The notes: generated by a model from the letters alone, not told the origin. A stretch of DNA of 64,000 nt from an uncultured Bacillota bacterium (GCA_963804645.1 CAWDRG010000005.1:1-64000); one strand, 5' to 3'; shown: positions 9,622-63,556, counted from the stretch's first letter. Numbers and translations: made by a program.

Positions 9622-10605
9622 ATGATCATCACGCGCAGCCCGCTGCGCATCTCGCTCGGCGGCGGCGGGACTGACCTGCCGTCGTACTATCGAGAACACG
9701 AAGGCTTCGTCATCGGCGGCGCGATCGACAAATACGTCTACCTGACCCTCCACCAGACGTTTGTCCCCGAGCTGATCATCAAGTACTCCAAGACCGAGCG
9801 CGTCCGCGCGCTCGAGGAGATCCAGCACCCGATCATCCGCGAGGCGCTGCGCCTGACGGAGGTCCCGATCGCGAGCCTGGAGCTCACGAGCATGGCCGAC
9901 ATCCCGGCGGGGACCGGCCTCGGGTCGTCCGGGGCCTTCACGACCGGCCTTCTGAAAGTGCTGCACACCTTCAAGAAGAACCTCGTGCACCCCGAAGAGC
10001 TGGCCGAGCAGGCGTGCCACATCGAGATCGACCTGCTCGGCGAACCGGTCGGCAAGCAGGACCAGTACGCCTCGGCGTACGGCGGCCTCACGTGCTTCCG
10101 GTTCCTCGCGGACGGCCGCGTCGACGCGCAGCCGCTGAAGCTCGACACCGACACGCTCTACAACCTCGAGGACAACCTGCTGCTGTTCTTCACCGGCTAC
10201 TCCCGGGCGGCGTCGGAGATCCTCCGCGACCAGGACACCCGCAGCCGGGGCCGCGACGCCACGATGCTCGAGGAGCTGCACCTGGTCAAGCGCCTCGGCC
10301 TGGAGAGCCGGGACGCGCTCGAGCAGGGCGATCTCGGGCGGTTCGCCGAGCTGATGAACGTCCACTGGGAGCACAAGCGGCGCCGCTCGCGCGGGATGTC
10401 GAACCCGTCGATCGACGAGTGGTACGCGCTCGGCGTGAGCCACGGGGCGCTCGGCGGCAAGCTGATCGGCGCCGGCGGCGGCGGCTTCCTGATGTTTTAC
10501 GCCGAGGACAAGGGCCGGCTCCGCCGCGCGATGCGGCAGGCAGGGCTGCCGGAAGTCCGGTTTCGCTTCGACTTCGAGGGCACGAAGATCATCGCGCAGT
10601 CGTGA
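9622..10605 (+). CDS. hddA: GHMP-family sugar-phosphate 1-kinase (HddA/LmbP-like)
   Basis: MIITRSPLRISLGGGGTD, PAGTGLGSSG, VGKQDQY, GGKLIGAGGGG. Confidence 0.88.
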   Translation: MIITRSPLRISLGGGGTDLPSYYREHEGFVIGGAIDKYVYLTLHQTFVPELIIKYSKTERVRALEEIQHPIIREALRLTEVPIASLELTSMADIPAGTGLGSSGAFTTGLLKVLHTFKKNLVHPEELAEQACHIEIDLLGEPVGKQDQYASAYGGLTCFRFLADGRVDAQPLKLDTDTLYNLEDNLLLFFTGYSRAASEILRDQDTRSRGRDATMLEELHLVKRLGLESRDALEQGDLGRFAELMNVHWEHKRRRSRGMSNPSIDEWYALGVSHGALGGKLIGAGGGGFLMFYAEDKGRLRRAMRQAGLPEVRFRFDFEGTKIIAQS

Positions 10606-11358: not shown

Positions 11359-12384
11359 ATGCGGATCCTCCTCGTCGACACGACGCAGTACCGGCCGACG
11401 ACGCCGCTGTTTCGGGACGCCGTCGTGGAACTGGGGCACACGCTGCGGTTCATCGACGAGGGCCCGTTCCTCGAGCCGCTGGAGCATTCGCTCGTCCACA
11501 AGATCGCCTACCGGCTGCGGCGCCGGCGGCCGCTGAGCTTCGGGCGCTTCAACCGCACGTTGCTCGACGAGGCGCGCGCGTTTCGCCCCGACGTGGCGCT
11601 GATCGTGAAGGGCACGTACGTCGCTCCCGACACGCTCGCCGCGATCAAGCGGGAGACCCGCGCCTACCTGATCAACTACATGACCGACGACCCGTTCAAC
11701 CCGGCGCACGCGTCGGCGGACCTCCTCGGCGCGATCCCCCAGTACGACCTGTACTGCTCGACGAAGCGCGCCATCCTCGGCGACCTGGACCGGGCCGGCT
11801 GCCTGCGCCCCGTGCACACGTGGTTTGCGTACAAGCCCGAGCTGCACTTTCCGGAAGCGCCCCTCTCCACGGACGAACGCGACCGGTTCGCCGCGGACGT
11901 GGCGTTCATCGGCGGCGCGGACGCCGACCGGCTCCCCTACGTGGAGGCGATCGCCGCGCTGCCCAACGTGACGCTCGCGCTCTACGGCGGCTACTGGCAG
12001 CGCCACGAGCGGTTTCGCGCGCGCGCCCGCGGCTTCGCGGTCGGCCGCGAGTACCGGCTCGCGCTCGGCGGCGCCCGCATCGCGCTGTGCCTGGTGCGCC
12101 GGGCGAACCGGGACGGACACGTGATGCGGACGTTTGAGATCCCGGCGTGCGGGGCGTTCATGCTCGCCGAGGACACCGACGAGCACCGCGAGCTGTTCAA
12201 AGGCGGCGCGGAGGCGGCGTTCTTCAACACCCCGGAAGAGCTCGCCGAGCAGGTGCGCTACTATCTCACCCGCGACGCCGCCCGCCGGCGGATCGCGGAC
12301 GCGGGACACCGGCGCGTGATCACCGGCGGGCATACGTACCGCAACCGGCTGGCCCAGATCCTCGCGCTGGTGCCCGCCCGCTAG
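11359..12384 (+). CDS. Glycosyltransferase, CgeB/Glyco_trans_1_2-like
   Basis: YMTDDP, DVAFIG, MRTFEIPACGAFML, HTYRNRL. Confidence 0.88.
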   Translation: MRILLVDTTQYRPTTPLFRDAVVELGHTLRFIDEGPFLEPLEHSLVHKIAYRLRRRRPLSFGRFNRTLLDEARAFRPDVALIVKGTYVAPDTLAAIKRETRAYLINYMTDDPFNPAHASADLLGAIPQYDLYCSTKRAILGDLDRAGCLRPVHTWFAYKPELHFPEAPLSTDERDRFAADVAFIGGADADRLPYVEAIAALPNVTLALYGGYWQRHERFRARARGFAVGREYRLALGGARIALCLVRRANRDGHVMRTFEIPACGAFMLAEDTDEHRELFKGGAEAAFFNTPEELAEQVRYYLTRDAARRRIADAGHRRVITGGHTYRNRLAQILALVPAR

Positions 12385-12388
12385 CAGA

Positions 12389-12417
12389 TTGACCTGGTTG
12401 ACAAAAGGTTTTATACT
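12389..12417 (+). promoter_or_regulatory. Sigma70-type promoter of the Xre/RES operon
   Basis: TTGACC (12389-12394), 17-nt spacer, TATACT (12412-12417); GGAG RBS at 12425; ATG at 12437. Confidence 0.8.
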
Positions 12418-12436
12418 GACAACTGGAGCAACTACG

Positions 12437-32663: not shown

Positions 32664-33410
32664 CTACCGGCTCCGGGGCACGCGCGCCGGCCGGTCGAGC
32701 GTATAGCCGGCGTTGACCGCGTCCGTGCGAAACATTCGGACCGTCTCGAGCGAGAACTCGCCGAGGTCCTTCCCCAGCCCGTCGAGCTTCGCGAGGATAT
32801 CGGACGTCACGGTGATGACGTGGCACCCGATCGCGTCGGCCTGGAGAACGTTCAGCACCTCGCGCGGGCTCGCCCAGATCAGTTCCACGTTCGGGCTGGG
32901 CGCGAGGAGCGCAAGCGCCGCGGTCATCAGCGGCACCGGGTCGCGCCCGGTGTCCGCGATGCGCCCGGCGAACACGGACGCGTACGCGGGCGCGCCGCCG
33001 CGGACGGCCGCGGCCACGTCGCGGACCTGCTCGAGCGTAAACATGGCGGTGACGTTGACCTTGACCCCTGACGCGGAGAGCTCCCGGACGAGCGGAATCG
33101 ACGAGTCGCCGCGCGTGTTCGTGATCGGGATCTTCACGTACACGTGCTGGCCCCACGACGCGATCTCGCGGGCCTGGCGCTGCATCTCGGCGAACTCGTC
33201 CGCGAACACCTCGAACGAGATCGGGCGGTCGGGGATGTGCTCGAGGACATCCAGCGCAAACGCCCGGTAGTCGGCCACGCCGGCCTTCCGCATCAGCGTC
33301 GGATTCGTCGTGAATCCCCGCACGAGTGGATGCCGGTAGAGCGCGACCATCGCGGTCCGATCGGCCCCGTCGGCGAACACCTTGACCCGCAGCTGCGCTC
33401 CCGCCGTCAC
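32664..33410 (-). CDS. Short transaldolase (glycan-cluster/LmbR-like type)
   Basis: KVFADGAD, FTTNPTLM, ISFEV, catalytic YVKIP, SVFAGRIADTG, WASPRE. Confidence 0.9.
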   Translation of the reverse strand: MTAGAQLRVKVFADGADRTAMVALYRHPLVRGFTTNPTLMRKAGVADYRAFALDVLEHIPDRPISFEVFADEFAEMQRQAREIASWGQHVYVKIPITNTRGDSSIPLVRELSASGVKVNVTAMFTLEQVRDVAAAVRGGAPAYASVFAGRIADTGRDPVPLMTAALALLAPSPNVELIWASPREVLNVLQADAIGCHVITVTSDILAKLDGLGKDLGEFSLETVRMFRTDAVNAGYTLDRPARVPRSR

Positions 33411-33985
33411 GGTCTCCCCTTCCCCCGCGCCGCCCTCGACAGGATCCACTCGGCGGCCTCGGCGATCGAGGCGGCCGTGTAGTCCGGCAGCGAGCCGTAC
33501 GCGGGTTCCCCCCAGCCGTCGCCGAGCAGCACCGTCGCGCATCCGGCCCGGCGGCCCGCCTCGACGTCCTTCCAGCGGTCGCCGACCATCACGCTCTCGA
33601 GCAGGTTGATTCTATACCGCTCGGCCGCCTCGAGCAAGAGTCCCGGGCGGGGCTTGCGGCAGTCGCACCCGTCCGCGTCGTCGTGGTAGCACACGAGGAT
33701 CGCGTCGAGCGGCAGGCGCGCAAGCAGAGCCGCGTGCATCGCCTCGACGACCTCGCGGCGCTGCCGGCCGCGGGCGACCTCGGGCTGATTGGTGGCGCCG
33801 ATCAGCAGCAGCCCCGCGTCGCGCAGCCGTGCGAGCGCCTCGGGCACGCCGTCCGGCACCACGAGCTCGTCGAGCGTCGCAGGCGAGTGCGGGCGTCCGT
33901 CGCGCACGATCGCGCGATTGAGGACCCCATCGCGGTCGAGAAATACCGCCGGGCGGCCGTCCGGGCTCAGCGCACGGACTCCCAC
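33407..33985 (-). CDS. gmhB: HAD-IIIA sugar-bisphosphate phosphatase (GmhB/LmbK-like)
   Basis: FLDRDG, TNQP, CYH..CDCRKP, MVGDRWKD. Confidence 0.88.
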   Translation of the reverse strand: MGVRALSPDGRPAVFLDRDGVLNRAIVRDGRPHSPATLDELVVPDGVPEALARLRDAGLLLIGATNQPEVARGRQRREVVEAMHAALLARLPLDAILVCYHDDADGCDCRKPRPGLLLEAAERYRINLLESVMVGDRWKDVEAGRRAGCATVLLGDGWGEPAYGSLPDYTAASIAEAAEWILSRAARGKGRP

Positions 33986-34563
33986 TTCGTCGGCGCGCGC
34001 CGGAGCGCGGGATGCGACACCATCAGATGCCAGACGACCGCCTGGAACGCCTCGGCGTGCGGGGTGACGCGGTCCGGCGAGACCGTCGGCACGATCACGC
34101 ACGCGTCCGCGACCTCCGCGGTATAGCCGCCCGCGCGGCCGACGATCCCGATCACGCGCGCCCCGACCTGCTTCGCGTACCGGACGGCGTGGACGAGGTT
34201 CGGGCTGACGTTGCGGGCCAGGTCTCCGCCGCCCACAGAGAGCACCAGCACGAGATCGCGCCCATCGAGCCGGCTCGTGCGCAGCCACCCCTCGAACGCG
34301 GTGGCCCAGCCCTCGTCGTTGGTTCGGGCGGTGAGCTCGGATACGTTGTCGGTCGGCGCGTAGGCCTCGATTTCGGTGATCTTTCGAAAGTCGTTGACGG
34401 CGTGGGACGCGTTGGCCGCGCTCCCCCCGACGCCCAGGATGAAGAGCCGGCCGCCCCGCTCGCGGGTCTCGACCAGCAGAGCCACGGCCCGCTCCACCGC
34501 GTCCGCGTCGAGCGCCTGGGCGATCGCGGCCGCCTCATCAAGGTACTGCCTCGCGAAGCTCAT
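33967..34563 (-). CDS. SIS-domain phosphosugar isomerase (GmhA-like, atypical)
   Basis: GVGGSAANASHAVND, TARTND, LSVGGG, SPNL, HAEAFQAVVWH. Confidence 0.85.
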   Translation of the reverse strand: MSFARQYLDEAAAIAQALDADAVERAVALLVETRERGGRLFILGVGGSAANASHAVNDFRKITEIEAYAPTDNVSELTARTNDEGWATAFEGWLRTSRLDGRDLVLVLSVGGGDLARNVSPNLVHAVRYAKQVGARVIGIVGRAGGYTAEVADACVIVPTVSPDRVTPHAEAFQAVVWHLMVSHPALRRAPTKWESVR

Positions 34564-34639
34564 CGCCGCGCCTCCTCCGGCCGCGTCTCGGCGCGCCGCG
34601 TGTGAGGCGTCAGGAGTTCCCGAATCGACCCGTGCGCGG

Positions 34640-34885
34640 TCAGGAGCGGTCCCCCGCAGTCCCGAGGGCCCGCTCGAGCGCGCCGACCTTGGCTTCGAGC
34701 GCCCGCTGCTTCGCCGTCACGTCGGCGAACAGGCCGAGCGTCACGAGTGCCAGCCCGAGCACGCAGCCCGCGATATCGACGTAGCTCACGGATCCCCCGT
34801 ACTTCCCAGGCAGATACAGGTTCACCACGGCCACCCCGAACAGCACCGCCGGCACCGTGATCGCCAGGCGTGACAGTCCGGCCAT
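34640..34885 (-). CDS. Small 2-TM membrane protein with coiled-coil tail
   Basis: GAGGAGG RBS; two hydrophobic helices then QRALEAKVGALERAL. Confidence 0.65.
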   Translation of the reverse strand: MAGLSRLAITVPAVLFGVAVVNLYLPGKYGGSVSYVDIAGCVLGLALVTLGLFADVTAKQRALEAKVGALERALGTAGDRS

Positions 34886-34928
34886 CGCCGCACCTCCTCG
34901 ATCGCCGCGGCGCGTGCGCCGCGACGCC

Positions 34929-35978
34929 CTACCGCTCTGTCCACGTCCACAACGATTCCGCGCCGCGCCGCCGCCACAGCCGCACGAGCACCCCGCTGCC
35001 CCACGCCATGTGGATGCACGGAAACGCCGCCGCGACGCGCGGCCACAGCCCCAGGCGTCCGGCGGCCGCGGACGCCGCGATCGCAGCAGCGAGGTCGCAC
35101 ACCACGTAGGCGCCGAGGAGCGCGCCGAACGCGGCGAGGCTCCAGCGGCTGACAAACGACAGCGCCCCCAGCACGACCAGCGCCGCGACCAGGGCCGGGG
35201 GCACCGCCTGGCGCCAGGACGTGAGGTTCCCGTGCTTTAAGAGATTACCCGCTCTGGCGCCGCCGTAGCGGAAGTACAGCTTCCACAGCGCCCCGAGGGT
35301 CTCCCGAGGATAGTAGCCGACCACGATCGCGGTGTCGAGATAGACGCGTCCACCGGCCTCGCGAATCCGCTGGTTGATGTCCGAGTCCTCGCTGAGCAGC
35401 GGCGCGTCCTCGTCGAACAGGCCCACCCGGTCGAACACCTCGCGGCGAAAGCAGCCGAGATAGACCGAGTCCACAAACCCGCTCCGCCGCCCGAGCCGGA
35501 ACTGCGCGTTGCCCACGCCGAACGGGTGCGACATCGCGAGCCCGATCGCCTCCTGCATCGGCGCCGCCGCGATCGGCTTCTGGATGCCGCCGACGTTGTC
35601 GGCGCCGGTCCGCTCAAGCGCGTCGACGCAGCGCGCCAGATAGTCGCGCGGCACCAGGGCCCGCGCGTCGATGCGGGCGATCACACTCCCGCGCGCGGCG
35701 CGGATGCCGGTGTTGACCGCGGACGGGCGCTGGCGCTTGGGATCGTCGACGAGGCGCAGGGCGGGACCGTCGGCCCCTCCGCCGGCGCGCTCCGCGATCA
35801 GCCGCTCCACGTGCTCGCGCGTCCCGTCGTCGCTCAATCCATCCACGACGATGACCTCGACCCGACCGGGAGGATACGTCTGCTCCAATAGGCGGCGCAG
35901 GCACGCATCGACGTGCGGCGCTTCGTTCCAGACCGGCACGACGACCGACACGAAGGGGCAGTCCGCGGCCGCGCTCAC
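34929..35978 (-). CDS. Glycosyltransferase family 2 (ExoA-like)
   Basis: VSVVVPVWNE, VDGLSDDGT, RIDAR, SEDSDINQR; C-terminal TM helices. Confidence 0.9.
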   Translation of the reverse strand: MSAAADCPFVSVVVPVWNEAPHVDACLRRLLEQTYPPGRVEVIVVDGLSDDGTREHVERLIAERAGGGADGPALRLVDDPKRQRPSAVNTGIRAARGSVIARIDARALVPRDYLARCVDALERTGADNVGGIQKPIAAAPMQEAIGLAMSHPFGVGNAQFRLGRRSGFVDSVYLGCFRREVFDRVGLFDEDAPLLSEDSDINQRIREAGGRVYLDTAIVVGYYPRETLGALWKLYFRYGGARAGNLLKHGNLTSWRQAVPPALVAALVVLGALSFVSRWSLAAFGALLGAYVVCDLAAAIAASAAAGRLGLWPRVAAAFPCIHMAWGSGVLVRLWRRRGAESLWTWTER

Positions 35979-36976
35979 GCCCGGACCGCCCCCCGGGACG
36001 CGGCCCGGGTGTCGCGGCGCCGGGTCCCGCGCTCGAACGACCGGCGCTGCCGCCAGCGCCAGATCCGGATCGTCGAGGATTTCACCGCCGGCGCCGGCAC
36101 GGCCGAGACGACCGCCCGCAGGACCAGGCTCGCGGGGCCGGGGAGCGCGCGCGCGATCGCGTCGTTGAACCCGGGCTTGTCGCCGTTCGCGAGGTAGGCC
36201 GCGGCGAGATTGAGGCGGCAGCGCCGCAGGATGCGCGGCGCCCCGAGCGCCGCGCGCTCAGACTCACTCATCTCCCCAAACAGGCGCTCAAACATGCTGA
36301 GCGCGTTCCGCTTGAGGATCCACTGAATCTCCATCGTCGTGTTGCTGTCCTCCCGCACCTCCACGACCGCCAAATCCTCGGGCACGTACCCGAACCGGAC
36401 GCCGGCCCGCAGGAGGCGGAGGCACAGGTCCCACTCCTCCGGGAAGTACCGATCCTCGCGGAAGAAAAAGCCGCGCCGCAGCACGTCCCCGCGCACCATG
36501 AGCGTGTTCGGATTGATGAGCGACGCGTGCAGCAGCGCGTGGAACACGTCCCGGTCGCCGAGCGAGATGGGCCGGCGGAACACGCGGGACGGGTCGTGCG
36601 CGTAGAAGTGCAGCGCGTCGCAGAACACGGCGCCGTACTCGGGCCGGGCCTCGAGCCACGCGACCTCCCGCGCGACCTTGGCGGAGAGATAGAAGTCGTC
36701 GGCATCGAGAAACGTGATGTAGTCGCCCCGGCTCTCGCGGATGCCGCGGTTGCGGGCCGGGCCCTGGCCCTGGTTCGGCTGGGACAGCACCCGGACGCGG
36801 CCGTCCGGGATCCCGCGGGCGATCTCGGCGGTCCGGTCGGTCGAGCCGTCGTCGACGACGAGGATCTCGAGGCGGTCGTACGTCTGCTCGAGCGCGCTGC
36901 GCAGCGCGCGCAGGAGAAACCGCTCCGCGTTGTACGCGGGCACGATGATCGAGACGAGCGGCGCCGCGTCCCTCAC
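35975..36976 (-). CDS. Glycosyltransferase family 2
   Basis: VSIIVPAYN, VDDGSTD, ARNRG, FLDADD. Confidence 0.9.
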   Translation of the reverse strand: MRDAAPLVSIIVPAYNAERFLLRALRSALEQTYDRLEILVVDDGSTDRTAEIARGIPDGRVRVLSQPNQGQGPARNRGIRESRGDYITFLDADDFYLSAKVAREVAWLEARPEYGAVFCDALHFYAHDPSRVFRRPISLGDRDVFHALLHASLINPNTLMVRGDVLRRGFFFREDRYFPEEWDLCLRLLRAGVRFGYVPEDLAVVEVREDSNTTMEIQWILKRNALSMFERLFGEMSESERAALGAPRILRRCRLNLAAAYLANGDKPGFNDAIARALPGPASLVLRAVVSAVPAPAVKSSTIRIWRWRQRRSFERGTRRRDTRAASRGAVRA

Positions 36977-37758
36977 CGCCGCCCCTCCGCGCCGGCGGCG
37001 CCCCCGCGCGGCGCGGGCAGCCCATGCCACGTCCGCTCGAGCCGCGCGAGGTCCTCGGGACGGTCGATCCACCACAACCCCTCGTCCGCGGACATCGGAT
37101 AGCCGTACAGGGCCTCGCCGCGTGCGAGCAGCGCCGGAAACACGTCGCGGCCGAAGTCGCAGAACCGGCCCCCGGGGATCGCCGCCAGCACGCGCGGGTC
37201 CAGGACGAAGATCCCGGCGCTGATCCAGTGGCTGAACACCTCGGCGGGCGCCGGCTTCTCGAGAAAGCGCGTGATCCGCCCTTCAGGGGTGAGCCCGACG
37301 ATGCCGCTCTGCGTCGGGTCGTCGCGGTGGAAGAGCGCGATCGTCGCGGCCGCCCCCGGTCCCGCGCGGTGCCGCGCCCAGAGCCGGTCGAGCCGGCAGG
37401 CGCTGAGGTTGTCGCCGTACCACACGATGAACGGCGCCTCGAATCCGCGCGCGCCGAGCCTGACGGCGCCCGCGGTGCCGAGCAACTCCTCCTCGCGCGA
37501 GTAGGCGATCCGGACCCCGAAGCGCGTGCCGTCGCCGAAGTGGCGCTCGACGACCTCGGCGAGGTGGTGCACGTTGATCACCAGATCGGTGACGCCGTAC
37601 CCCCGCAGCCACAGCACCGTGTGCTCGAGCAGCGGCCGGCCGGCGAGGGGAATCATGCACTTTGGCACGCGGTCGGTGAGCGGCCGCAGCCGCGTGCCGA
37701 GACCGGCCGCCAGGATCATGGCGCGCGTCGGCACGGCGTCGGGCCGCTCAGACGTCAT
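36973..37758 (-). CDS. Sugar-1-phosphate nucleotidyltransferase (HddC/LmbO-like, short form)
   Basis: MILAAGLGTRLRPLT..PKCM, EELLGTAG, YGDN, FLEKP. Confidence 0.9.
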   Translation of the reverse strand: MTSERPDAVPTRAMILAAGLGTRLRPLTDRVPKCMIPLAGRPLLEHTVLWLRGYGVTDLVINVHHLAEVVERHFGDGTRFGVRIAYSREEELLGTAGAVRLGARGFEAPFIVWYGDNLSACRLDRLWARHRAGPGAAATIALFHRDDPTQSGIVGLTPEGRITRFLEKPAPAEVFSHWISAGIFVLDPRVLAAIPGGRFCDFGRDVFPALLARGEALYGYPMSADEGLWWIDRPEDLARLERTWHGLPAPRGGAAGAEGRR

Positions 37759-38806
37759 CGCGGTCGAGGCGCACGGCGGCGCCGGTCTGTGCCGACCGGT
37801 ACACGGCGTGCGCCATCCGGAGCGCCTCGAGGCCGTCGCGCCCGCTGCCGAGCGGCACCCGGCCCTCCAGAATCGCCCCCGTGAACTCCCGCCACTCCGC
37901 GTCCCACGACCCGTCCGGCGCCGGAAACTCGACGTGCTGCTCCTCGGGCGGACCCGACTCGGGGCGGCGGCGTCCCCACGTGAGGCGCTCCGGGCCGTAG
38001 CTGGCGCCGAGCCCGTCGGCGATGACGTAGCCGTCGCCGCCGAACACTTCGTAGGAGAACAGGTTCTTCCACTGCGTCCAGCTCGCGTGCACCGACGCGA
38101 CGCGGCCCTGCGCCGTGCGAAACAGCCCGAACGCGTTGTCCTCGACGGGACGGACGCCCGGGTCGAGGCCTGGGGGTGTCCAGACATAGGTCTCGGCAAA
38201 CCCGAATGCCTCCGCGAACTCGCCGAGAAACCACCGGCTCAGATCGATGACGTGGATCCCCTGGTCAAGCAGCTCCCCGCCCCCTGCGCGCTCGCGGTCG
38301 GCCCGCCATTCCGCGGCGTACCCCGGGCGGCCGCCGTGCCCGTACCGGGCGCGGACGAAGCATGGCTCGCCGATGTCGCCCGCCGCCACGAGCGCGTACG
38401 CCCGCTGCACCGCTGCATGGTGCCGGTGATTGAACCCGACCTTGACGACGAGCCGTCCCGCGCTTCCGGCTGCGGACAGGATCGCGCGGGCTTCCGCGGG
38501 GGTGCGCGCCATCGGCTTCTCGACCAGCACGTGCTTCCCGCACTGCAGCGCCTCGATCGCGATCGGGGCGAGCCAGTTGTGCGGGGTGGCGACGATCACG
38601 ACGTCGACGCCGTCCCGGCGGACCGCGGCCTGCCAGTCCGGCGCCGCATCGCACCCATAGGCCGCCGCGGCCGCCGCGGCGCGCGCGGCATCGAGATCCG
38701 CGACCGCGACCACGGTCCCGATGCCGGTCGACCGGACCACGTCGGCCCGGCGGCGGCCGATGAGGCCGCACCCCACCACGGCGACGCGGGGAGACGCAGA
38801 CGCCAT
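37748..38806 (-). CDS. Gfo/Idh/MocA family oxidoreductase
   Basis: VVGCGLIG, HVLVEKP, GFNHR, GGGELLDQGIHVID. Confidence 0.92.
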   Translation of the reverse strand: MASASPRVAVVGCGLIGRRRADVVRSTGIGTVVAVADLDAARAAAAAAAYGCDAAPDWQAAVRRDGVDVVIVATPHNWLAPIAIEALQCGKHVLVEKPMARTPAEARAILSAAGSAGRLVVKVGFNHRHHAAVQRAYALVAAGDIGEPCFVRARYGHGGRPGYAAEWRADRERAGGGELLDQGIHVIDLSRWFLGEFAEAFGFAETYVWTPPGLDPGVRPVEDNAFGLFRTAQGRVASVHASWTQWKNLFSYEVFGGDGYVIADGLGASYGPERLTWGRRRPESGPPEEQHVEFPAPDGSWDAEWREFTGAILEGRVPLGSGRDGLEALRMAHAVYRSAQTGAAVRLDRDDV

Positions 38807-38835
38807 TCCGGGTCCGCGGCGGCGGGGAAGCCCCG

Positions 38836-39753
38836 CTAGCCGCCTTCCTCCGCGAGCTCGCGGACGAGCGGCGCGAGCGTGTGCCGGTCGAGCCTGCGCA
38901 GCGTCAGCCACGGGGACGCCGCGAGGGCGGCGATCCGCGCGGCGTCCCACGACCGCCAGTCGTCGTAGGGGGCCGCGATCAGCTTGCCGGTGAGGCCGTC
39001 CGCCTCGTCGGATGCGAGGTACGCGACGAGCTCCGCGGCGAGCGTCGGGGGCACGCCGCCCTGGCCGCTCTCACGCAGCTCGCGGATGCGGGCCGCGAGC
39101 GGGCCGGCGCGTTCGCCCGCCTCGAGCACGTCGTCCTGCAGGCGCGTATCGACCGCGCCCGGCGCGATCGCGTTGACCTGCACGTCAAACTCGCGCGCCT
39201 CTTCCGCGAGCGTCTCGGTCAGGCGCACGACCGCGGCCTTCGATACGCCGTACGCCGAGAAGCGCGCGAGCGGGGCGGTCGCCCCGCCGCCGGAGAAGTT
39301 GATGATCTTGCCGCGGCGGCGCGCGATCATCTGCGGCAGCACGGCGCGGCAGCAGAGAAACGTGCCGACCAGATTGACGTGCAGCGCGCGCACCCACTGG
39401 GCCGGGTCGACTTCCCAGGTCACGCCGATCGGCCCGTAGACGCCGGCGGCGTTGACGAGCACCTCCACCGGTCCGTACGCGTCGAGCGCGGCGCGCGCCA
39501 CGCGGTCGACGTCCTCGGGCCGGGACACATCGGCGGACACGGTCCGGGCGGCCCCGCCCCGCTGCCGGACGGCCGCGGCGACGCGCTCGAGTTCGGAGGG
39601 GGTCCGCGAGACCAGCACAAGCGGCCGCCCGGCCGCGGCGAGCGCGTAGGCCGCCGCCTCGCCGAGACCCCGGCCGCCGCCCGTGACGATCGCCGCCCCG
39701 GGCTCAGCCACGGTCCCGCCCGCGCTCGGCTGCGGGTGCGATCCTCCGCTCAC
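38836..39753 (-). CDS. SDR family oxidoreductase
   Basis: TGGGRGLG, VNAAG, FSGGG, YGVSK, VNAIAPG. Confidence 0.92.
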   Translation of the reverse strand: MSGGSHPQPSAGGTVAEPGAAIVTGGGRGLGEAAAYALAAAGRPLVLVSRTPSELERVAAAVRQRGGAARTVSADVSRPEDVDRVARAALDAYGPVEVLVNAAGVYGPIGVTWEVDPAQWVRALHVNLVGTFLCCRAVLPQMIARRRGKIINFSGGGATAPLARFSAYGVSKAAVVRLTETLAEEAREFDVQVNAIAPGAVDTRLQDDVLEAGERAGPLAARIRELRESGQGGVPPTLAAELVAYLASDEADGLTGKLIAAPYDDWRSWDAARIAALAASPWLTLRRLDRHTLAPLVRELAEEGG

Positions 39754-40949
39754 CGCTCGGCACGCTGCACGACCCCCTGGTCGCGCATGACGCGCTCGGC
39801 CTCCTCGAGATAGTCCCGGCTCCCCGCCTGCGAGCGGATCCAGGCCACGTACTCGCGCACGCTCTCCTCCACCGGGATGGTGGGCGCCCAGCCGAGTGCG
39901 CGCAGGCGCGAGATGTCCGAGATCGTATGGCGCGTATCACCCAGCCGGAACTCCCCCGCGACGAGCGGCACCGCCGTACTGTCGAACGCGTCGAGCATCA
40001 TCTGCGCCAGCTCCAGGACCGTCACGGCGCGTCCGCCGCCGACGTTGAAGACGCCGAAGTCCGCGCGCGGGTCCCGCAGCACGAGCACGTTCGCGCGGGC
40101 GACGTCGCGAACGTTCACGTAGTCGCGCAGCTGCTGCCCGTCCTCGTACACCACCGGGGGCAGGCCGTGCATCAGGCGCAGCGCGAACCGCCGCGTGGCG
40201 CCGGAATACGCGTTGTAGAACGAGTTGCGCGGCCCCTGCACGTACGTGTAGCGCATGCAGGCGGTGGGCACGCCGTAGCGCCGGCCCAACCGGTCGGCGA
40301 GCAGCTCGATCGCGTACTTCGAGATCCCGTACGCGGTGCCGGGGCTGATCGTCTCCTCGTCGATCAGGAGCGGCTGCATCTCCCCGCCGCACACCGGACA
40401 CCGCACCTCCCACTCGCCCCGCCGGAGCTGTTCCAGCGGCCGCGCGCCCGGCACGCGCACCGCCCAGTGGGGGAGGTCGGCGAGCGCGTCGGGGCCGCGC
40501 TCCAGCTGCTCGCGCATCGTCGGGGCCTTGCGGCCGCCGGCGCACCGGGGACAGAAGTACCGGCCTTCCCCGCTCACCGCCTGGGAGGATGCGAACACGA
40601 TCTTGCGCACGGGAAAGCGCCGCGGGTCCGCGACGATCAGCTCAAACAGGAGCGCGGCGCTCTCGGCGTTCGTGTGGATGAACCGCGAAAATTCGGGCAG
40701 ATAATCCTGGTACGCCGCGAGATGCATCACGCAGTCGACGCCGGCGAGGGCCTCGCGGAGCGTCGCGGGGTCGGAGACATCGCCCCGCACGAACTCGGCG
40801 GCGGCCGGGACCCACGCCGGCATCCCGTCAGGATGGACCCGCGGCTGCAGCGCGTCGAGGATGCGGACGCGGTACCCCTCGGCCAGGAGCTGATCGACCG
40901 TGTGGGAGCCGATGAACCCGGCCCCGCCGGTCACAAGACACCGCGTCAC
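39750..40949 (-). CDS. NAD-dependent epimerase/dehydratase with CxxC...CxxC insertion
   Basis: LVTGGAGFIGSH, CPRC and CPVC, YGISK, RDYVNVRDV. Confidence 0.9.
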   Translation of the reverse strand: MTRCLVTGGAGFIGSHTVDQLLAEGYRVRILDALQPRVHPDGMPAWVPAAAEFVRGDVSDPATLREALAGVDCVMHLAAYQDYLPEFSRFIHTNAESAALLFELIVADPRRFPVRKIVFASSQAVSGEGRYFCPRCAGGRKAPTMREQLERGPDALADLPHWAVRVPGARPLEQLRRGEWEVRCPVCGGEMQPLLIDEETISPGTAYGISKYAIELLADRLGRRYGVPTACMRYTYVQGPRNSFYNAYSGATRRFALRLMHGLPPVVYEDGQQLRDYVNVRDVARANVLVLRDPRADFGVFNVGGGRAVTVLELAQMMLDAFDSTAVPLVAGEFRLGDTRHTISDISRLRALGWAPTIPVEESVREYVAWIRSQAGSRDYLEEAERVMRDQGVVQRAER

Positions 40950-45163: not shown

Positions 45164-46090
45164 TCACTCCGGGAGGAACCGGTTCCGGCGTGATCCTGTC
45201 GCCGCATCCCACGCTCCAATCGCGATACACGTCAGCTTCGCGGCGCGATGGTCCTCGAACAGGACCATCTTCACCACCGTCTTGCCCAGATTCATCGACG
45301 CGGCGGCCACCCACGCCGGCTCGCGCCGCCCATAGGCGCCGAAGATGCGCAGCAAATTGCGCGTCACGTAATAATAGCGCCACGGCGCGTGATTGGGAAC
45401 AATCACGACCCGGCCGCCGAGCCGGCGCTCCTCCATCTTGCCGGCCGCGTGGGTCATCAGCGGCCGGCAGGACACCACGATTCGCCACCCGCGGCTGCGC
45501 AGCCGGAGGCAGTACTCCAGGTCGACGCCTTCAATAAAAAAGTCCTCCCGGAACGGCCCGGCCGCCGCGTAGGCCGCGACCCGCACGAGGCTCCCGGAGG
45601 TGATCGGGGTCTTGGCCTCGAGGTACGGCGGTGCGGGGGATGGACAGCGCACCGCGATCTGGCCGCTGTGCCGGCTGCGCGCGTTTGCGCTCAGGAGGCC
45701 GACCCGCTCGCGGAACGGACAGACGGCGTACACGGCGCCGAGCCCCTCGACGAGGTCGGCATCGATCTCCGAGTCCTGGTCCAGGGTGAGCACCCACGCG
45801 CAGCCGAGGACCTCGGCCCGGCGCACGCCCTGGTTCAGCGCCGCGCCGATGCCGAGGTTGCTGGCATTCTCGAGCACCTCGATCCGCGGGGCCGCGAGGC
45901 CCCGCAGCACACGGCGCACCGGGTCGGGGCTGTGGTTGTCCACGACGATCACGCGGCCCACCTGCCCCGCCGTCCGCGCGAGCCGGGCGGCGAAGCCCTC
46001 GTCGGGCCCGTACGTCACGATGACCGCGGCAACGGTCTCCGGCGGGATCCCGGAGACGCCCGGGCCGTCGCCCGAGGCGGCCGGTGTCAC
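45164..46090 (-). CDS. Glycosyltransferase family 2 (RfbF rhamnosyltransferase-like)
   Basis: VDNHS, NLGIGAALNQG, LDQDS, ITSGS, RYYYVTRN. Confidence 0.88.
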   Translation of the reverse strand: MTPAASGDGPGVSGIPPETVAAVIVTYGPDEGFAARLARTAGQVGRVIVVDNHSPDPVRRVLRGLAAPRIEVLENASNLGIGAALNQGVRRAEVLGCAWVLTLDQDSEIDADLVEGLGAVYAVCPFRERVGLLSANARSRHSGQIAVRCPSPAPPYLEAKTPITSGSLVRVAAYAAAGPFREDFFIEGVDLEYCLRLRSRGWRIVVSCRPLMTHAAGKMEERRLGGRVVIVPNHAPWRYYYVTRNLLRIFGAYGRREPAWVAAASMNLGKTVVKMVLFEDHRAAKLTCIAIGAWDAATGSRRNRFLPE

Positions 46091-48121: not shown

Positions 48122-48128
48122 GCGGCGC

Positions 48129-48662: not shown

Positions 48663-48665
48663 GGG

Positions 48666-49826: not shown

Positions 49827-49860
49827 CTGTCGCCCTCCAGTCGACGCGCCGCCGCGGGGC

Positions 49861-52966: not shown

Positions 52967-54427
52967 CTAGGGGGCGCTCCCGGCGGCGCGTCCCAAGAGC
53001 CGCGTCGCGGCGATCGCGATGGCGGCGTAGAGGAGCCCGCCGACGAGCACGCCCGCGGCCGCGCCGACCCGTCCGTGGGGGGCCGCGAGCAGCACCGCCA
53101 GCATCGCGCCGCCGGCCACCACCGCGACCAGCGCGGTCCGCACGAGCTCGGGCGGGGCGACCGGGACCGACGCGCCGCGCGCGGTCAGGACGATGCACAG
53201 CGCGCACATGACCGCCTGCGACAGCACGGTCCCGAGCGCGACGCCGTACAGCCCCATCCCGGGCACGAGGAGGAAGTTCAGGGCGACGTGCGTCCCGGTC
53301 GACACGAGGCCCGCGGCGAAGACCTCACGCTGACGGTCCACGACGAGCAGCGCGATGTAAAAGAGATTTTGGAGATAGGTGATGAGCGCGGCGGCGACCA
53401 GGATCCTGAGCGTCAGCACCGCGGGCGCGAACCCCGCCGGGTACAGGACGTCGATGATCGCGGGGGCGTCCACAAACACGATGAGCGAGATCATGAGCGA
53501 CAGGAGCACGGTGCCGCGCGCCCACGCCGTCCAGTAGCGGATGAAGCGATCGGGCGCGGTCTGCTGCGCCTCCGCCAGCGCCGGGAAGATCGCCGCGGTG
53601 GCGAGCGCCATCGGAAACAGGAGCACGCCGTAGATTTTGTCCGCGGCGCTGTACCAGCCGATCTGCGCGAGCCGGCCGAGATAGCCGAGCGTCACGGGGC
53701 CGATGTTCCCGTTCAGGTCGCCGGTGACGCGCAGCAGCGCGAGGAACAGTCCGATCGCCAGGTACTCCCGCCAGGCGGGCAGGTTGATCCGCGGCCGCAG
53801 CGACCCCGCCGCGCCGCCGGCCCGCAGCACGAACACCGCGGCGCCGATCACGGTCAGGGCAATCGCCGCGACGTAGGCGATCGCCACGCTCAGCACCGTC
53901 GGAAACGCGGTCGTGAGCCCGACCACGAGCACGACGAGGCACACGATGTATCCGAGGCGGAAGCCGGCCTCGACCTCCATCCGCTGCCGCGCGCGGAACA
54001 GCGCGGAGAAGAAATTCGCGAGCTCCAGCAGCGCCACGTAGAACGCCAGGAGAAAGATCATCCGGCGCACGAGGGGGTCGTGGGTGATCAGCGCCCCGCA
54101 CAGCCAGACCACCGCGATGCCGCCGACGCCGAGGGCGAGCTTGAGGGTCAGGAGATCCCCGAAGTGGCGCTCCCGCAGGCGGTCGCCCGCGAACTGGCGC
54201 GTGATCGTCGTCGCGAGCCCCATGTCAAACAAGGCGCCGAACAGCGAGACGAACGAGAACGCGTAGCCGAACACGCCGTACGTCGTCGCCCCGAACTTCC
54301 GGATCACGTACACGGTGAGGATGAAGTCGCCGAGCCCGGCGAGGGCGCTCGCGACCCCGAGCCACAGGGTGTTCTTGGCGATCACCTGGCCCCGCGAGGT
54401 TTGGCGGAGCAGCTGGACGAGGTTCAC
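52967..54427 (-). CDS. wzx: Polysaccharide flippase (Wzx/MOP family)
   Basis: IAKNTLW, DMGL, GWYSAA; about 14 TM segments. Confidence 0.9.
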   Translation of the reverse strand: MNLVQLLRQTSRGQVIAKNTLWLGVASALAGLGDFILTVYVIRKFGATTYGVFGYAFSFVSLFGALFDMGLATTITRQFAGDRLRERHFGDLLTLKLALGVGGIAVVWLCGALITHDPLVRRMIFLLAFYVALLELANFFSALFRARQRMEVEAGFRLGYIVCLVVLVVGLTTAFPTVLSVAIAYVAAIALTVIGAAVFVLRAGGAAGSLRPRINLPAWREYLAIGLFLALLRVTGDLNGNIGPVTLGYLGRLAQIGWYSAADKIYGVLLFPMALATAAIFPALAEAQQTAPDRFIRYWTAWARGTVLLSLMISLIVFVDAPAIIDVLYPAGFAPAVLTLRILVAAALITYLQNLFYIALLVVDRQREVFAAGLVSTGTHVALNFLLVPGMGLYGVALGTVLSQAVMCALCIVLTARGASVPVAPPELVRTALVAVVAGGAMLAVLLAAPHGRVGAAAGVLVGGLLYAAIAIAATRLLGRAAGSAP

Positions 54428-55668
54428 GAGGCCGGCGGCGCGGGTGCGGCGAGCTCCGCGATCAGGTCGACGACGCGCTGCGCGAGGGAATCCCAGGAGT
54501 TGGCCTGGGCGAGGGCCGCGCCATGGGCCGCCATCGCGTCCCGCGCGGCCGGGGACAGCGCGAGGAACCGTCCGATCGCGTCGGCCAGCGACGCCGCGTC
54601 TTCCGGCTCCGCCAAGAGGCCGAGCCCGTGCCGCGCCACCAGCTGCCCCATCTCCGACACGTTCGTGGCGATCACCGGGCGCCCGTAGGTGCAGGCTCCC
54701 TTCACCAGCGGGCCGCTGCCGCCGGTGTACGCCTTCGTGTAGGGCAGCACCAGCGCATCGGCGGCGGCGAAATACGCCGGCACGTCCTCGTCTGGCACGT
54801 ACCCGAGCCGCAGATTGACGCGCGCGCCGACCTCACGCCGGGCGACCATCACCTCGATCTCGTCCGCCGTATACTCCATCGGCCAGCCCGCCACGACGAG
54901 GTGGAACGGCTCGTCGCGGAGGCTCCGTACCGCGTCCAGCAGATACTCAATCCCCTTATCGCGCCGCAGCACGCCGAAGAACAAGAGCAGCGTACCCTCG
55001 GCCGGCAGGCCGAGCCGCGCCCGGGCTGCCTCCCGGGTCGGCACCGCCGCGGCGACGTCGCCGCCGTCCGGCACGATCCCGATCGGAAAATCGGGGGACA
55101 GCCGGAGCTGCTCCCGCAGGCGGTCCCGATGCCACTCGCCAAGCACGGCGAGCGCCCGGACGCCGCCCGAGGTCAGCGCCGCCCGGAACACCTCGCGCTG
55201 CACCACCTTGTAGCCTTTCTTGAAGACGGAGCCGGGATACGCGCCGAACGAGAAGTTGGCCGCCCAGGGAAACATGATGACCGGCGGCAACCAGCGCCGG
55301 TTCCACCAGAACAGGAGCGACGCCGTCATGAACTCCACGTCGAACACGGCGACCCCGTCAAACACCGCCGCGCGGCACAGGCGGATGGCGGCCGCGGTGA
55401 CCGCGGCGCTGTTCCGATAGTAGCCCCAGTAGTAGTACAGCGGCGCGCGGCCGATCGCGTCGTCGAACCGCTCGAACGCGAGGCGGCCGTCCCCCACCTC
55501 GACCACCGTGAACCGCGGCGGAACCGCCAGGTACCGGGAGGGATCCAGACGGTTCGTGCACAGCGTGACGTCGTGCCCCCGCTCGCCGATCGCCTGGCAC
55601 AGCTTGCTCGTGTAGAGCCCGTAGTGCCCGCGCTTGTCCCCGGTGGGCTGCACGATCAGGATGCGCAT
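54424..55668 (-). CDS. Glycosyltransferase family 4
   Basis: FFGVLRRDKG, YFAAADALVLPY, SG, PVIAT. Confidence 0.9.
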   Translation of the reverse strand: MRILIVQPTGDKRGHYGLYTSKLCQAIGERGHDVTLCTNRLDPSRYLAVPPRFTVVEVGDGRLAFERFDDAIGRAPLYYYWGYYRNSAAVTAAAIRLCRAAVFDGVAVFDVEFMTASLLFWWNRRWLPPVIMFPWAANFSFGAYPGSVFKKGYKVVQREVFRAALTSGGVRALAVLGEWHRDRLREQLRLSPDFPIGIVPDGGDVAAAVPTREAARARLGLPAEGTLLLFFGVLRRDKGIEYLLDAVRSLRDEPFHLVVAGWPMEYTADEIEVMVARREVGARVNLRLGYVPDEDVPAYFAAADALVLPYTKAYTGGSGPLVKGACTYGRPVIATNVSEMGQLVARHGLGLLAEPEDAASLADAIGRFLALSPAARDAMAAHGAALAQANSWDSLAQRVVDLIAELAAPAPPAS

Positions 55669-55714
55669 CGAGGATTCAGCGCCGCGGGCGGCCCGTCATC
55701 CGCCCGATCCGGCG

Positions 55715-57163
55715 CTACCGCCCGCGAAACGCGAGCGCATGCGCAATGGTCTTCAATAAGATCACGAGATCCAGGGCCAGCGATTGATGCTTGATGTAGT
55801 AGAGGTCGTACTGCAGGCGCACGAGCACGTCCTGCTCGCTCCCTGCGTACCCTTGCTGAACCAAACCCCACCCGGCCATCCCGGGCTTCACCACGTGGCG
55901 CAGCCGGTACAGCGGCAGCTCCGCGGCGAGCTTCTCGACAAACTCCGGCCGTTCGGGCCGCGGGCCGACCGCGCTCATCTCTCCCCGCAGCACGTTCAGC
56001 AGCTGCGGAAACTCGTCCACATGGGTCGCGCGCAGCACCCGTCCCACGCGGGTCACGCGCGGATCGCCCCGGCGCGCCCACACGGCGCCGTCCGGCTCCG
56101 CCTCGGCGACCATCGACCGGAACTTGAACGTCCGGAAGACGCGGCCACCGATCCCCACGCGCGGCTGCACGTAGAAGATCGGCCCCGGCGAGTCCAGCCG
56201 GATCGCGAGGGCGACGATCGGCAGCAGCACGGCCAGGCACAGCACGCCGAGCCCGGCCAGCACCACGTCGAGCGCGCGCTTGGTCAAGCGCTGCACGCTG
56301 CTGAGGGTCAGCTGTTCGACCGGGATCGCCACGTACCAGTCGTCGCGCACCTGCTCCACCGGCACGCGCCCCGTGAGCCGCTCGTACAGTGCCGGCATCG
56401 GGACGAGCTCGACCCCCTGCTCGACGCACTGCAGCAGCGTCGCGAGCAGCATGGAGTCGACCTCGCGCACGGGCGCGAGGATCAGCGCCGATACGTCCTG
56501 CCGCGCGATCACCGCGGGCAGGTCGGCCGGCGTGCCGAGCACCGGCCCCGGCGCGGGTCCGTCCTCGTCCGCCGCGCGGGGCTCGTCGGCGATGAACCCG
56601 ACCACCTGGTAGCTCTCATCGCCGGCCTCCGCGAGCGTCGCCGCGATGAGACGGGCCGGCTGGCCCGTCCCGATGATCAGCGTCGGCTGCCGGAACGCGG
56701 GCCGGGGGAACGCCAACGTGTGGAGCGTGCGCTCGACCGCCAGGCATACGAGAACGAGCGCGGGCAGCGACAGCAGTTCGTTTCGGGAACTCGGCAGCGG
56801 CGGCGTGAGGTGCGGGACCAGCAGATACGCTGCCGCGGCGAGTACCCCCGCCTGGGCCGCCCGCATGACGCTCGGGCCGACCCGCCGCGTGTTCCGCGGC
56901 TCGTACGCGTCGCACGCCGACGCCATCACCAGCCACAGCACCGCCAGGATCAGATACCACTGCGGCTGCTGCAGGAGAGCCCGCGGGTCAAACGCCGGCG
57001 CGACCCGCAACGCGAGCCACACATAGAGCGCAACCAGCAGCGCTCCGAGGTCGAGCGCCGTGAGCAGCAGGCGCCGTTCGGAGAATCGCAGCCGGAGCCG
57101 CGCGGGCGTGCGGGCGCCGGCGCGCCCGGCCAACGACTCGACGGCTTCGCCCCGCGCCGGCAC
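55715..57163 (-). CDS. Priming polyprenyl-phosphate hexose-1-P transferase (WbaP/WcaJ-like)
   Basis: N-terminal TMs, KFRSM, DPRVT, DEFPQL, GEMSAVGPRPE, YDLYY. Confidence 0.93.
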   Translation of the reverse strand: MPARGEAVESLAGRAGARTPARLRLRFSERRLLLTALDLGALLVALYVWLALRVAPAFDPRALLQQPQWYLILAVLWLVMASACDAYEPRNTRRVGPSVMRAAQAGVLAAAAYLLVPHLTPPLPSSRNELLSLPALVLVCLAVERTLHTLAFPRPAFRQPTLIIGTGQPARLIAATLAEAGDESYQVVGFIADEPRAADEDGPAPGPVLGTPADLPAVIARQDVSALILAPVREVDSMLLATLLQCVEQGVELVPMPALYERLTGRVPVEQVRDDWYVAIPVEQLTLSSVQRLTKRALDVVLAGLGVLCLAVLLPIVALAIRLDSPGPIFYVQPRVGIGGRVFRTFKFRSMVAEAEPDGAVWARRGDPRVTRVGRVLRATHVDEFPQLLNVLRGEMSAVGPRPERPEFVEKLAAELPLYRLRHVVKPGMAGWGLVQQGYAGSEQDVLVRLQYDLYYIKHQSLALDLVILLKTIAHALAFRGR

Positions 57164-57170
57164 GGCCGCG

Positions 57171-58490
57171 CTACCCCGCCCGCCCCAGCGCCACATACCG
57201 CACCTTAGGTCCGAACCGCGCGGGATCGAGCACCCGCCAGCAGTCGACGACCGTTGTCGGCGTGCGCGTAAGGTACGTCTCGTCCACCTCGCGGAACTCC
57301 GGCGCGGCCGTCGTAAAGACGCACAGGGCCGCACCGTCCATGCAGGCCCGGGCGGAGGCGGCGTACCGCACCCGGTCGCCGAGGAGCGCGCGCATGCCGG
57401 CGACCGCGAGCGGATCGTACACGGTCACCTCGACGTCGCCCTCCGCCAGCAGCGTGTCGACCAGCAGGATGCCGGGCGACTCGTCGAGCACCGGCGTGCC
57501 CGCCTTGAACGACAGGCCCAGCACCGCCACGCGCCGGTCCGCCTCCGGCAGATGCCGGAGCACGAGCCGGGCGATGTCCCCGATGCGCTCGAGATTCGCA
57601 GCTTCGGTCGCCTTCGCGAGCCGCGCGTCTACGCCGTGGCGCGCGGCGAACACCGCGAACGCGCGGTTGTCTCTCGGGAAGCACGGCCCCCCGAACGGCA
57701 GCCCGCCGCGGAGATAGTACGGCGAGATCCGCCGGTCCGCGCCGAGGGCGTCGGTGATCGCGTCGATGTCGGCGCCCGGAATCGCTTCGCAGATCGACGC
57801 CAGCGTATTCGCGAAGGTGATCTTCGTGGTCACGAACGAGTTGAGCGCGATCTTTGTGATCTCCGCGCTCACGATCGACATCCGGGCCACGCGCGGCGTG
57901 TGCTCGCACACCGTCCGGTACAGCTGCTCGAGCCGGTCCCCGGCCGCCTCGGAGCTCTGCCCGATCAGCACCAGGTCGGGGCGCAGGAAATCCGAGATCA
58001 CGGTCCCCAGCGCGATGAACTCGGGGTTGTAGCAGACCTCGAACCCCTCGTGCAGCGACCGTCCGGACACCGACGCGATCAGCGGGATGAGACGCCCCTC
58101 GACCGTCCCCGGCGACACCGTGGACGTGATCACGAACAGGTGCGAGGACTTGCTCGACGCTCGGAGCGCCCGGGCCAGGGGGGTCAGCGCGTCTTGGAGA
58201 TGCGCGTCGGAGAATTCACCGTCCGGGCCGCTCGGCGTGGGCACGATCAGCAGCGTGACGTCGGACCGCTCGAGCGCCAGCCCGTAGTCCGCGGTCGCCT
58301 GGAGGCGGTCGCCGGCGGCGCGCAGCACCTCGGGCAGCCGCGGCTCGTAAAACGGCGCGACCCCGCGGTTCACCGCCTCCACCGTGCTCGGGTTCACGTC
58401 CACGCCGACGACGGGGATCCCGCGGGACGCGAAGCACGCGGCCGCGCACAGGCCCAAGCGCCCGAGACCGATGACCGAGAGTTGCACCAC
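57171..58490 (-). CDS. UDP-glucose/GDP-mannose dehydrogenase family protein
   Basis: GLGRLG, VPTP, STVSPG, YNPEF, FGGPCFPRD, LGLSFK. Confidence 0.92.
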   Translation of the reverse strand: MVQLSVIGLGRLGLCAAACFASRGIPVVGVDVNPSTVEAVNRGVAPFYEPRLPEVLRAAGDRLQATADYGLALERSDVTLLIVPTPSGPDGEFSDAHLQDALTPLARALRASSKSSHLFVITSTVSPGTVEGRLIPLIASVSGRSLHEGFEVCYNPEFIALGTVISDFLRPDLVLIGQSSEAAGDRLEQLYRTVCEHTPRVARMSIVSAEITKIALNSFVTTKITFANTLASICEAIPGADIDAITDALGADRRISPYYLRGGLPFGGPCFPRDNRAFAVFAARHGVDARLAKATEAANLERIGDIARLVLRHLPEADRRVAVLGLSFKAGTPVLDESPGILLVDTLLAEGDVEVTVYDPLAVAGMRALLGDRVRYAASARACMDGAALCVFTTAAPEFREVDETYLTRTPTTVVDCWRVLDPARFGPKVRYVALGRAG

Positions 58491-59681: not shown

Positions 59682-59749
59682 CGGGTCCCCCTGTGTGTGC
59701 CTTCAGCCGTTCTCGTTGCGCGTGATGCCGACGTCTCTCCTTCCCGCGA

Positions 59750-61380: not shown

Positions 61381-61402
61381 GTCCCCCCTTTGCTCGACCC
61401 CG

Positions 61403-62398: not shown

Positions 62399-62416
62399 CG
62401 GGCGCACCACCCAGGG

Positions 62417-63379: not shown

Positions 63380-63556
63380 AGACACCGGGTGGATCGTTCC
63401 CGCGCCACGATGCTCCGCATGCGCATGGTCACTGCGCGATACGTGCGGACCTTCGATAGCAGGGTGGTACGCCGCCTGGCCGAATACAGTGCGACCGACA
63501 TGGTACCGGAGATTCCATTGCCGCCTCGGCACTCCTTCGCCGGTGATCACACTCAG

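Follow-up and report, generated by a model that had tools for sequence, protein, structure and literature searches.

Two described routes to activated higher sugars are closest to the locus considered here, a run of nine genes on the minus strand (32664-40949) of a 64,000-nucleotide stretch of DNA, the window, which forms the start of contig C5 in the genome (G000; 5.3 Mb, ~69% GC) of an uncultured Bacillota bacterium. The GDP-D-glycero-alpha-D-manno-heptose pathway employs an isomerase (GmhA), a kinase (HddA), a phosphatase (GmhB) and a nucleotidyltransferase (HddC), and the zinc ligands of GmhA, His, Glu, Gln and His, are called completely conserved in PMC5705639. In the lincosamide branch, LmbR forms an octulose phosphate from ribose-5-phosphate and a ketose donor (PMC5854111), LmbN, LmbK and LmbO have been characterised as the C8 isomerase, phosphatase and guanylyltransferase (PMC4351081), and GDP-octose is converted into GDP-lincosamide by LmbM, LmbL, CcbZ and CcbS (PMC12945683). 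Celesticetin-type (Ccb) proteins, which are 59-74% identical to their Lmb counterparts according to PMC4351081 Table 2, were used as stand-ins for the Lmb enzymes. A search with TIGR00875 against 401 Streptomyces-like genomes gave 7 matches, two of them in celesticetin-type clusters (L136/L137), four in orphan clusters that contain these sugar genes too and one without such a link, and for one cluster the celesticetin-type identity was shown by matches to the solved CcbF and CcbD. In a primary paper of 2020, the L and Z proteins are reportedly described as jointly removing the C8 hydroxyl and leaving a 6-ketone, a step said to require an eight-carbon chain.

By its gene types the module is not a canonical heptose pathway; it appears to work like the lincosamide octose branch without being a member of it, since the types of transaldolase, nucleotidyltransferase and epimerase differ. 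Because the isomerase, the phosphatase and the Z- and L-type redox proteins are of kinds shared with the lincosamide producers, and because a short-chain dehydrogenase/reductase (SDR) replaces the aminotransferase, we infer, with a probability of about 0.6, that a nucleoside diphosphate (NDP)-octose, likely 8-deoxy, is made for a flippase-dependent surface glycan. The first-pass annotation of this DNA had proposed a modified NDP-octose or an unusual heptose for such a glycan; the four shared types now favour the octose, while the likenesses to LmbR, LmbO and LmbM on which it also drew have failed. The module, with an additional open reading frame (ORF) lying inside it, is composed as follows:

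32664..33410, minus strand: small transaldolase of 248 aa, TIGR02134 (339.8 bits against a cut-off of 281.95), with D14, E67, K93, F147, R150, S181 and R183
33407..33985, minus strand: HAD-IIIA sugar-bisphosphate phosphatase of the CcbK/LmbK clade, starting at 33970 (in-frame CTG) or 33985 (GTG)
33967..34563, minus strand: SIS ketose-aldose isomerase with the GmhA fold, a CcbN-type SVGGG loop with an insertion at 109-120, and the metal site H54/D58/E171/H179
34885-34640, minus strand: hydrophobic membrane-type ORF of 81 codons without a family, between GT2a and the isomerase
34929..35978, minus strand: family 2 glycosyltransferase GT2a with a hydrophobic C-terminus, immediately preceding the isomerase in most of the same-family loci looked at
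35975..36976, minus strand: family 2 glycosyltransferase GT2b, adjoining the nucleotidyltransferase in 7/7 relatives' loci which show this nucleotidyltransferase
36973..37758, minus strand: short sugar-1-phosphate nucleotidyltransferase, whose best family is mannose-1-phosphate guanylyltransferase, below the cut-off
37748..38806, minus strand: Gfo/Idh/MocA oxidoreductase, the top CcbZ match of the genome (209 bits; next 112)
38836..39753, minus strand: classical SDR reductase, present in 13 of the 14 full-length loci that have a CcbZ-type gene
39750..40949, minus strand: NAD-dependent epimerase, not CcbM-type, with an insertion of ~60 aa bearing two CxxC motifs (133, 184)

The tightly coupled run of nine genes reported by the first-pass annotation is thus present in full on one strand, and the Pfam families agree with the enzyme classes assigned. 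Read from 40949 downwards, the order is epimerase, SDR, Gfo/Idh/MocA, nucleotidyltransferase, GT2b, GT2a, the 81-codon ORF, isomerase, phosphatase and transaldolase; with the starts chosen here, overlaps of 4-11 nt are found at six of the nine junctions, and the remaining ones have gaps of 29, 43 and 76 nt. The 81-codon ORF, absent from the earlier gene list, is probably outside the module, there being no room for a counterpart in two same-genus genomes.

In the isomerase, the two described routes can be told apart at the level of residues. Its structure model (pLDDT 97) has the GmhA fold, from which the length of the substrate is not derivable, and its His54, Asp58, Glu171 and His179 are the CcbN-type residues, two of the four GmhA zinc ligands being swapped. 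The motif SV[GH]GG together with a loop of 10-15 residues (6 in GmhA), which presumably binds the substrate phosphate, occurs in 78/78 cassette and 6/6 lincosamide-type isomerases, and in 0/14 GmhA and 0/16 other SIS proteins. Only 14 GmhA, from 31 loci, had been recovered in that first pass; in a second one, with E. coli GmhA as query, the loop motif was found in 0/30 GmhA selected by TIGR00441 and in 1/24 other proteins, this one being a cassette isomerase. The window protein is 35% identical to the CcbN-type, scores 55 bits with TIGR00441 against a cut-off of 209 and does not have the His/Glu/Gln/His ligand set, and no GmhA above this cut-off was found in the genome. In the isomerase tree, a check which the first-pass annotation had proposed, the cassette, the Ccb and the orphan Streptomyces-type clusters join at a support of 96/86 (55 of 114 sequences), although the tree is not decisive against GmhA, as considered below.

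The phosphatase, 45.7% identical to the CcbK-type, falls in a clade with the Ccb proteins at 99/93 (33 of 86 sequences; bootstrap not fully settled). Excluding Ccb from the cassette phosphatases is rejected (p-AU 0.0035, approximately unbiased (AU) test), and the CcbK-type proteins nest inside them. By the shared insertion, the Asp/Glu site and the CcbK clade, therefore, both enzymes side with the lincosamide proteins and not with GmhA and GmhB, as had been expected.

The genome's best matches to CcbZ and CcbL both lie in the locus, so that an LmbL- and LmbZ-type redox pair is at hand. The Z-type oxidoreductase is 43% identical to CcbZ, and its grouping has a support of only 94, unstarred. Gene 57171, which had been put forward as the LmbL counterpart, was rejected: it matches CcbL with 123 bits and retains the cysteine of the GGSCFPKD motif, which is catalytic in this family, while the gene at 65292-66620 matches with 241 bits (41% identity) and, like CcbL and 14 cassette homologues, is without it. 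These cysteine-less L-type genes group at SH-aLRT 98. In one relative (G019) the L-type gene stands between the same epimerase and SDR, and 8/8 L-type genes in 43 full-length loci occur with Z-type and SDR genes; the 65292-66620 gene probably belongs to the module and has been displaced from it. The further parts of the system lie at some distance from the run:

65292-66620 of contig C5 (G000:C5; L118), minus strand: CcbL/LmbL-type homologue of UDP-glucose dehydrogenase, 1.3 kb past the window end
9622..10605, plus strand: GHMP sugar-phosphate kinase, with ~20 kb of other DNA between it and the transaldolase
11359..12384, plus strand: PF13524 GT-B glycosyltransferase, which in same-genus genomes is located between the kinase and the transaldolase
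52967..57334, minus strand: Wzx-type flippase (PF01943), family 4 glycosyltransferase and polyprenyl-phosphate sugar-phosphate transferase (TIGR03025, 360.7 bits against a cut-off of 295.55)

The kinase, gene 57171 and a DegT aminotransferase gene (48666) had all been reported in the window and do exist. The kinase is, by sequence and neighbourhood, a part of the module in spite of its distance, as previously suggested: it has a median identity of 64% to the kinases adjoining the transaldolase elsewhere, and in the same-genus genomes G006 and G002 it lies 1.1 and 2.6 kb from the transaldolase, the PF13524 transferase also being within 3 kb. The ~20 kb spacer in the window holds unrelated genes, partly of lower GC; a toxin-antitoxin-like gene pair at 12389-13631 (plus strand), ending in a RES-domain protein and also found in G004, lies at the edge of this DNA. 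As to the use of the sugar, GT2b is one candidate and the PF13524 transferase a second; the latter is present in 9/14 relatives with the isomerase and also in 3 without it, and therefore no single user is singled out.

The transaldolase had been described as a dedicated enzyme, and this is confirmed. Two other full-length transaldolases, both TIGR00876-type, exist in the genome, one of them within 1.2 kb of a transketolase match, and therefore the window enzyme is not the genome's only, housekeeping transaldolase. Its E67, K93 and F147 line up with the catalytic Glu, Lys and Phe of solved small transaldolases and are invariant in 30/30 aligned homologues, and 8000/8000 scored transaldolase candidates were homologues. 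TIGR02134 (transald_staph), whose curated cut-off is passed and whose Schiff-base residues are carried by the window enzyme, is annotated as a plain transaldolase, whereas here and in 64/80 nearest loci it is coupled to a sugar-phosphate isomerase cassette. The first-pass annotation had also argued from the Glu of ISFEV and the Phe of SVFAGR: both motifs are present and mark an ordinary transaldolase, but since CcbR-type enzymes have Gln and Leu at these places, the enzyme is, by these residues, not LmbR-like in its active site.

Conservation of the cassette was surveyed in the loci of the best 80 of at least 594 confirmed transaldolase matches, which are the closest relatives and not independent; they span 14 named phyla, 38 of them being Acidobacteriota. 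The counts for these loci are 64 for the isomerase, 52 for the phosphatase and 50 each for the kinase and a nucleotidyltransferase (40, 31, 32 and 30 of the 43 full-length ones). Since isomerase, phosphatase and kinase recur so often beside the transaldolase, the gene clustering is not due to chance, and the five-gene core recurs in many phyla. In addition, one open frame is shared by isomerase and phosphatase in 10 loci and by phosphatase and transaldolase in 5 (15/80). The isomerase is present in 14/22 same-family genomes and in 0/38 more distant genomes searched; a low-GC cassette copy used as DNA query against E. coli genomes gave no match. Other cassette copies include CcbO-clade nucleotidyltransferases and CcbM-like epimerases, the latter (at least 195 bits) in 29/80 other loci.

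In the pathway proposed, the transaldolase would join a three-carbon unit, from fructose-6-phosphate or sedoheptulose-7-phosphate, to ribose-5-phosphate to give octulose-8-phosphate, which the insertion-bearing isomerase would convert into octose-8-phosphate. The kinase (9622) and the phosphatase would then shift the phosphate to C1, and the nucleotidyltransferase would activate the sugar, GTP being the probable nucleotide. Remodelling of the C6-C8 tail may fall to the epimerase, the CcbZ-type oxidoreductase and the cysteine-less CcbL-type protein, and the SDR could reduce the resulting ketone where lincosamides use LmbS, leading to a neutral, likely 8-deoxy, octose. Finally, GT2b or the PF13524 transferase would add the octose to the lipid-linked repeat unit.

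The parallel with the lincosamide branch comprises the same enzyme classes, the isomerase signature, the phosphatase clade, the Z-type protein and the cysteine-less L-type protein. The window differs in that its transaldolase belongs to another family and has other residues in the active site, its nucleotidyltransferase falls outside the CcbO clade, no CcbM-type gene was found in the genome, an SDR is present where lincosamides have an aminotransferase, and GT2s and Wzx take the place of condensation genes. Several observations weigh against the octose. The transaldolase is only 32% identical to the CcbR-type, has Glu67/Phe147 against Gln/Leu in 5/5 CcbR-type rows shown, and its tree placement relative to CcbR gives a p-AU of 0.47; moreover, a protein of the TIGR02134 clade lies on a Streptomyces plasmid outside any glycan locus. 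The nucleotidyltransferase, once taken for an LmbO counterpart, falls outside a CcbO clade which includes 14/20 sampled cassette nucleotidyltransferases. The epimerase at 39750 was discarded as LmbM, not being CcbM-type; no such epimerase was found in the genome, whose best CcbM match reaches 125 bits and lies elsewhere. The kinase, 33% identical to CcbP, forms its own clade apart from CcbP, which is long-branched and separate from both the cassette and the HddA-like kinases. As regards the isomerase, membership of the cassette set was itself decided by 45% identity to the window protein, 6 SIS proteins that have no insertion show the Asp/Glu swap too, and a grouping of the cassette isomerases with GmhA is not rejected (p-AU 0.33). 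The L-type gene lies ~24 kb from the operon; G015, a genome 92% complete, has a 62% orthologue of it, but no isomerase or Z-type gene could be found there; and 6/14 Z-bearing loci have no L-type gene within 10 kb. The role of LmbL and CcbZ is reportedly a 6,8-dehydration.

The main rival reading is an unusual NDP-heptose, in which the transaldolase would boost sedoheptulose-7-phosphate and the isomerase would represent a second heptose-isomerase family, with the epimerase, Gfo, SDR and L-type proteins changing stereochemistry or removing oxygen, and the lincosamide pathway being a later C8 offshoot. The ordinary active site of the transaldolase, unlike that of the CcbR-type, the GmhA fold of the isomerase with its AU result, and a kinase whose best solved relatives are heptose-phosphate kinases and close kin are all consistent with it, and with no GmhA over the TIGR00441 cut-off such a route would not duplicate a canonical one. 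The GDP-manno-heptose pathway also shares the isomerase-kinase-phosphatase-nucleotidyltransferase logic, the folds and the surface-glycan setting. Nevertheless, this alternative is held to be less likely than the octose: all four curated heptose families are missed by wide margins (156 of 600 bits for HddA, 79 of 150 for GmhB and 70 of 300 for HddC, the HddA and HddC models being possibly narrow), the insertion and the exchange of two of the four zinc ligands are common to the octulose-8-phosphate isomerase type, and the phosphatase groups with CcbK and away from GmhB. Moreover, a private transaldolase, unknown to the canonical pathway, would be redundant where transketolase and two other transaldolases already supply sedoheptulose-7-phosphate, yet it is kept by the isomerase, and in three relatives a different, TalC-like transaldolase occupies the same place. 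A distinctly less probable account is that another pentose or hexose acceptor leads to a different octose or a nonose, or that the product is placed on protein or lipid and not on a flippase-dependent polysaccharide. Transaldolases do accept several aldoses, according to PMC5854111, the nucleotidyltransferase and epimerase are particular to this module subtype, a pilin-like ORF is found directly upstream, and no PF04932 polymerase/ligase gene exists in the window (the nearest of 4 genome matches above the cut-off is at C5:151 kb). However, two same-genus genomes have no room for the pilin-like ORF, in G007 and G012, too, the module shares a same-strand run with an initiating transferase and Wzx, and nothing points to a nine-carbon product. 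An octose, likely 8-deoxy, for a flippase-dependent glycan is the reading preferred here.

The surface-glycan setting claimed by the first-pass annotation agrees with the neighbourhood of the module. The upstream part of this strand carries rml genes, gmd, the DegT aminotransferase, a GNAT gene, Wzx, the initiating transferase and the UDP-glucose-dehydrogenase-family gene, and both the initiating phosphoglycosyl transferase (TIGR03025) and the flippase (PF01943) of a Wzx-dependent locus are present. A search of the genome for the condensation and thiol-transfer genes (CcbD, CcbF, CcbV, LmbT-like, carrier domain) gave one weak CcbF-like match (41.6 bits) and none for the other four queries, so that an antibiotic is unlikely and an antibiotic cluster was rejected. 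The DegT gene, once suggested as LmbS, is the best CcbS match only narrowly (214 bits, against 189 for other DegT genes), stays linked to gmd, a GNAT gene and one of fcl-like type, and is probably not the LmbS counterpart; a role in making a 4-amino-4,6-dideoxyhexose appears more likely. CcbS-like genes of at least 290 bits occur in 2/80 loci.

In a wider perspective, a straight-chain eight-carbon aldose, probably an 8-deoxy-octose, may be a common, unrecognised building block of surface glycans in many phyla, produced by this cassette, and lincomycin and celesticetin may have taken over their sugar core from it, since CcbK nests inside the cassette phosphatases; this is put forward tentatively, at somewhat less than even odds. 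No description of the cassette was found in the open full-text literature, most subscription papers lying outside the search; the text of the SugarBase preprint, whose supplements may list unassigned masses, nowhere contains 'octo', 'octul' or 'transaldolase', and the accessible part of PMC2650404 mentions transaldolase for central metabolism only. Annotation pipelines label the cassette genes as heptose enzymes and a housekeeping transaldolase, and the isomerase insertion offers a simple sequence marker parting this route from GmhA. If the octose is real, a very large uncharacterised family encodes a cell-surface sugar without a description in the literature searched, and this would both explain where the lincosamide sugar core came from and supply GDP-octose chemistry with new enzymes. 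Full sets of M, L, SDR, Z, P, O, N, K and R genes are found in cultured bacteria, on a plasmid of Rhizobium jaguaris CCGE525 (L178) and a Lawsonia plasmid (L106), and with a cultured root-nodule strain carrying the full nine-gene version the question is directly testable.

Some further observations were made on these genes and their surroundings. In the Streptomyces-like genomes G620, G453, G424 and G355 (L139-L142), the clusters are compact, of the R-S-O-P-Z-N-M-L-K type, in which Z and N are too close for a carrier domain to lie between them, and that of L141 is followed by an LmbT-like glycosyltransferase; these clusters possibly make undescribed amino-octose natural products. The insertion of the window epimerase (39750-40949), absent from two solved epimerases aligned, could be a zinc ribbon. 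The pilin-like ORF (41475-40987, minus strand; 162 aa, with a good ribosome-binding site) lies between an FkbM methyltransferase gene and the epimerase; it has no Pfam match at 1e-4 and no room in G002 or G004, and a second ORF with a methylation motif is found at 61-756. The stretch 46087-50919 holds gmd, DegT, GNAT, an fcl-like reductase and a GT10-like transferase, of which the first four are kept as a block in G019. The glycan locus is split between gene 57171 and the L-type gene by a block of lower GC (63%; 58695-63550), with two FAA hydrolases, a solute-binding protein and a 2-hydroxyacid dehydrogenase, which is partly degraded in G004. Farther along the contig (G000:C5:170920-174299; L117), a second pair of GHMP kinase and SIS isomerase is followed by a carbamoyltransferase; this isomerase has the Asp/Glu metal site without the insertion, and a like pair occurs in G008.

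A second cassette type was also seen in same-family genomes (L206-L208 in G011, G001 and G003, and L205 in G008), with a TalC-like transaldolase, a Gfo protein and a differently cysteine-less UDP-glucose dehydrogenase homologue; in L242 (G012) only the last two of these were seen. Its transaldolase is 44% identical to the CcbR-type, yet has Glu and Phe. The insertion-type isomerase is linked to this cassette in G001, G003 and G011 and was not found in G008, where L205 carries, by Pfam, also a two-subunit thiamine pyrophosphate enzyme and an HldE-like kinase/nucleotidyltransferase.

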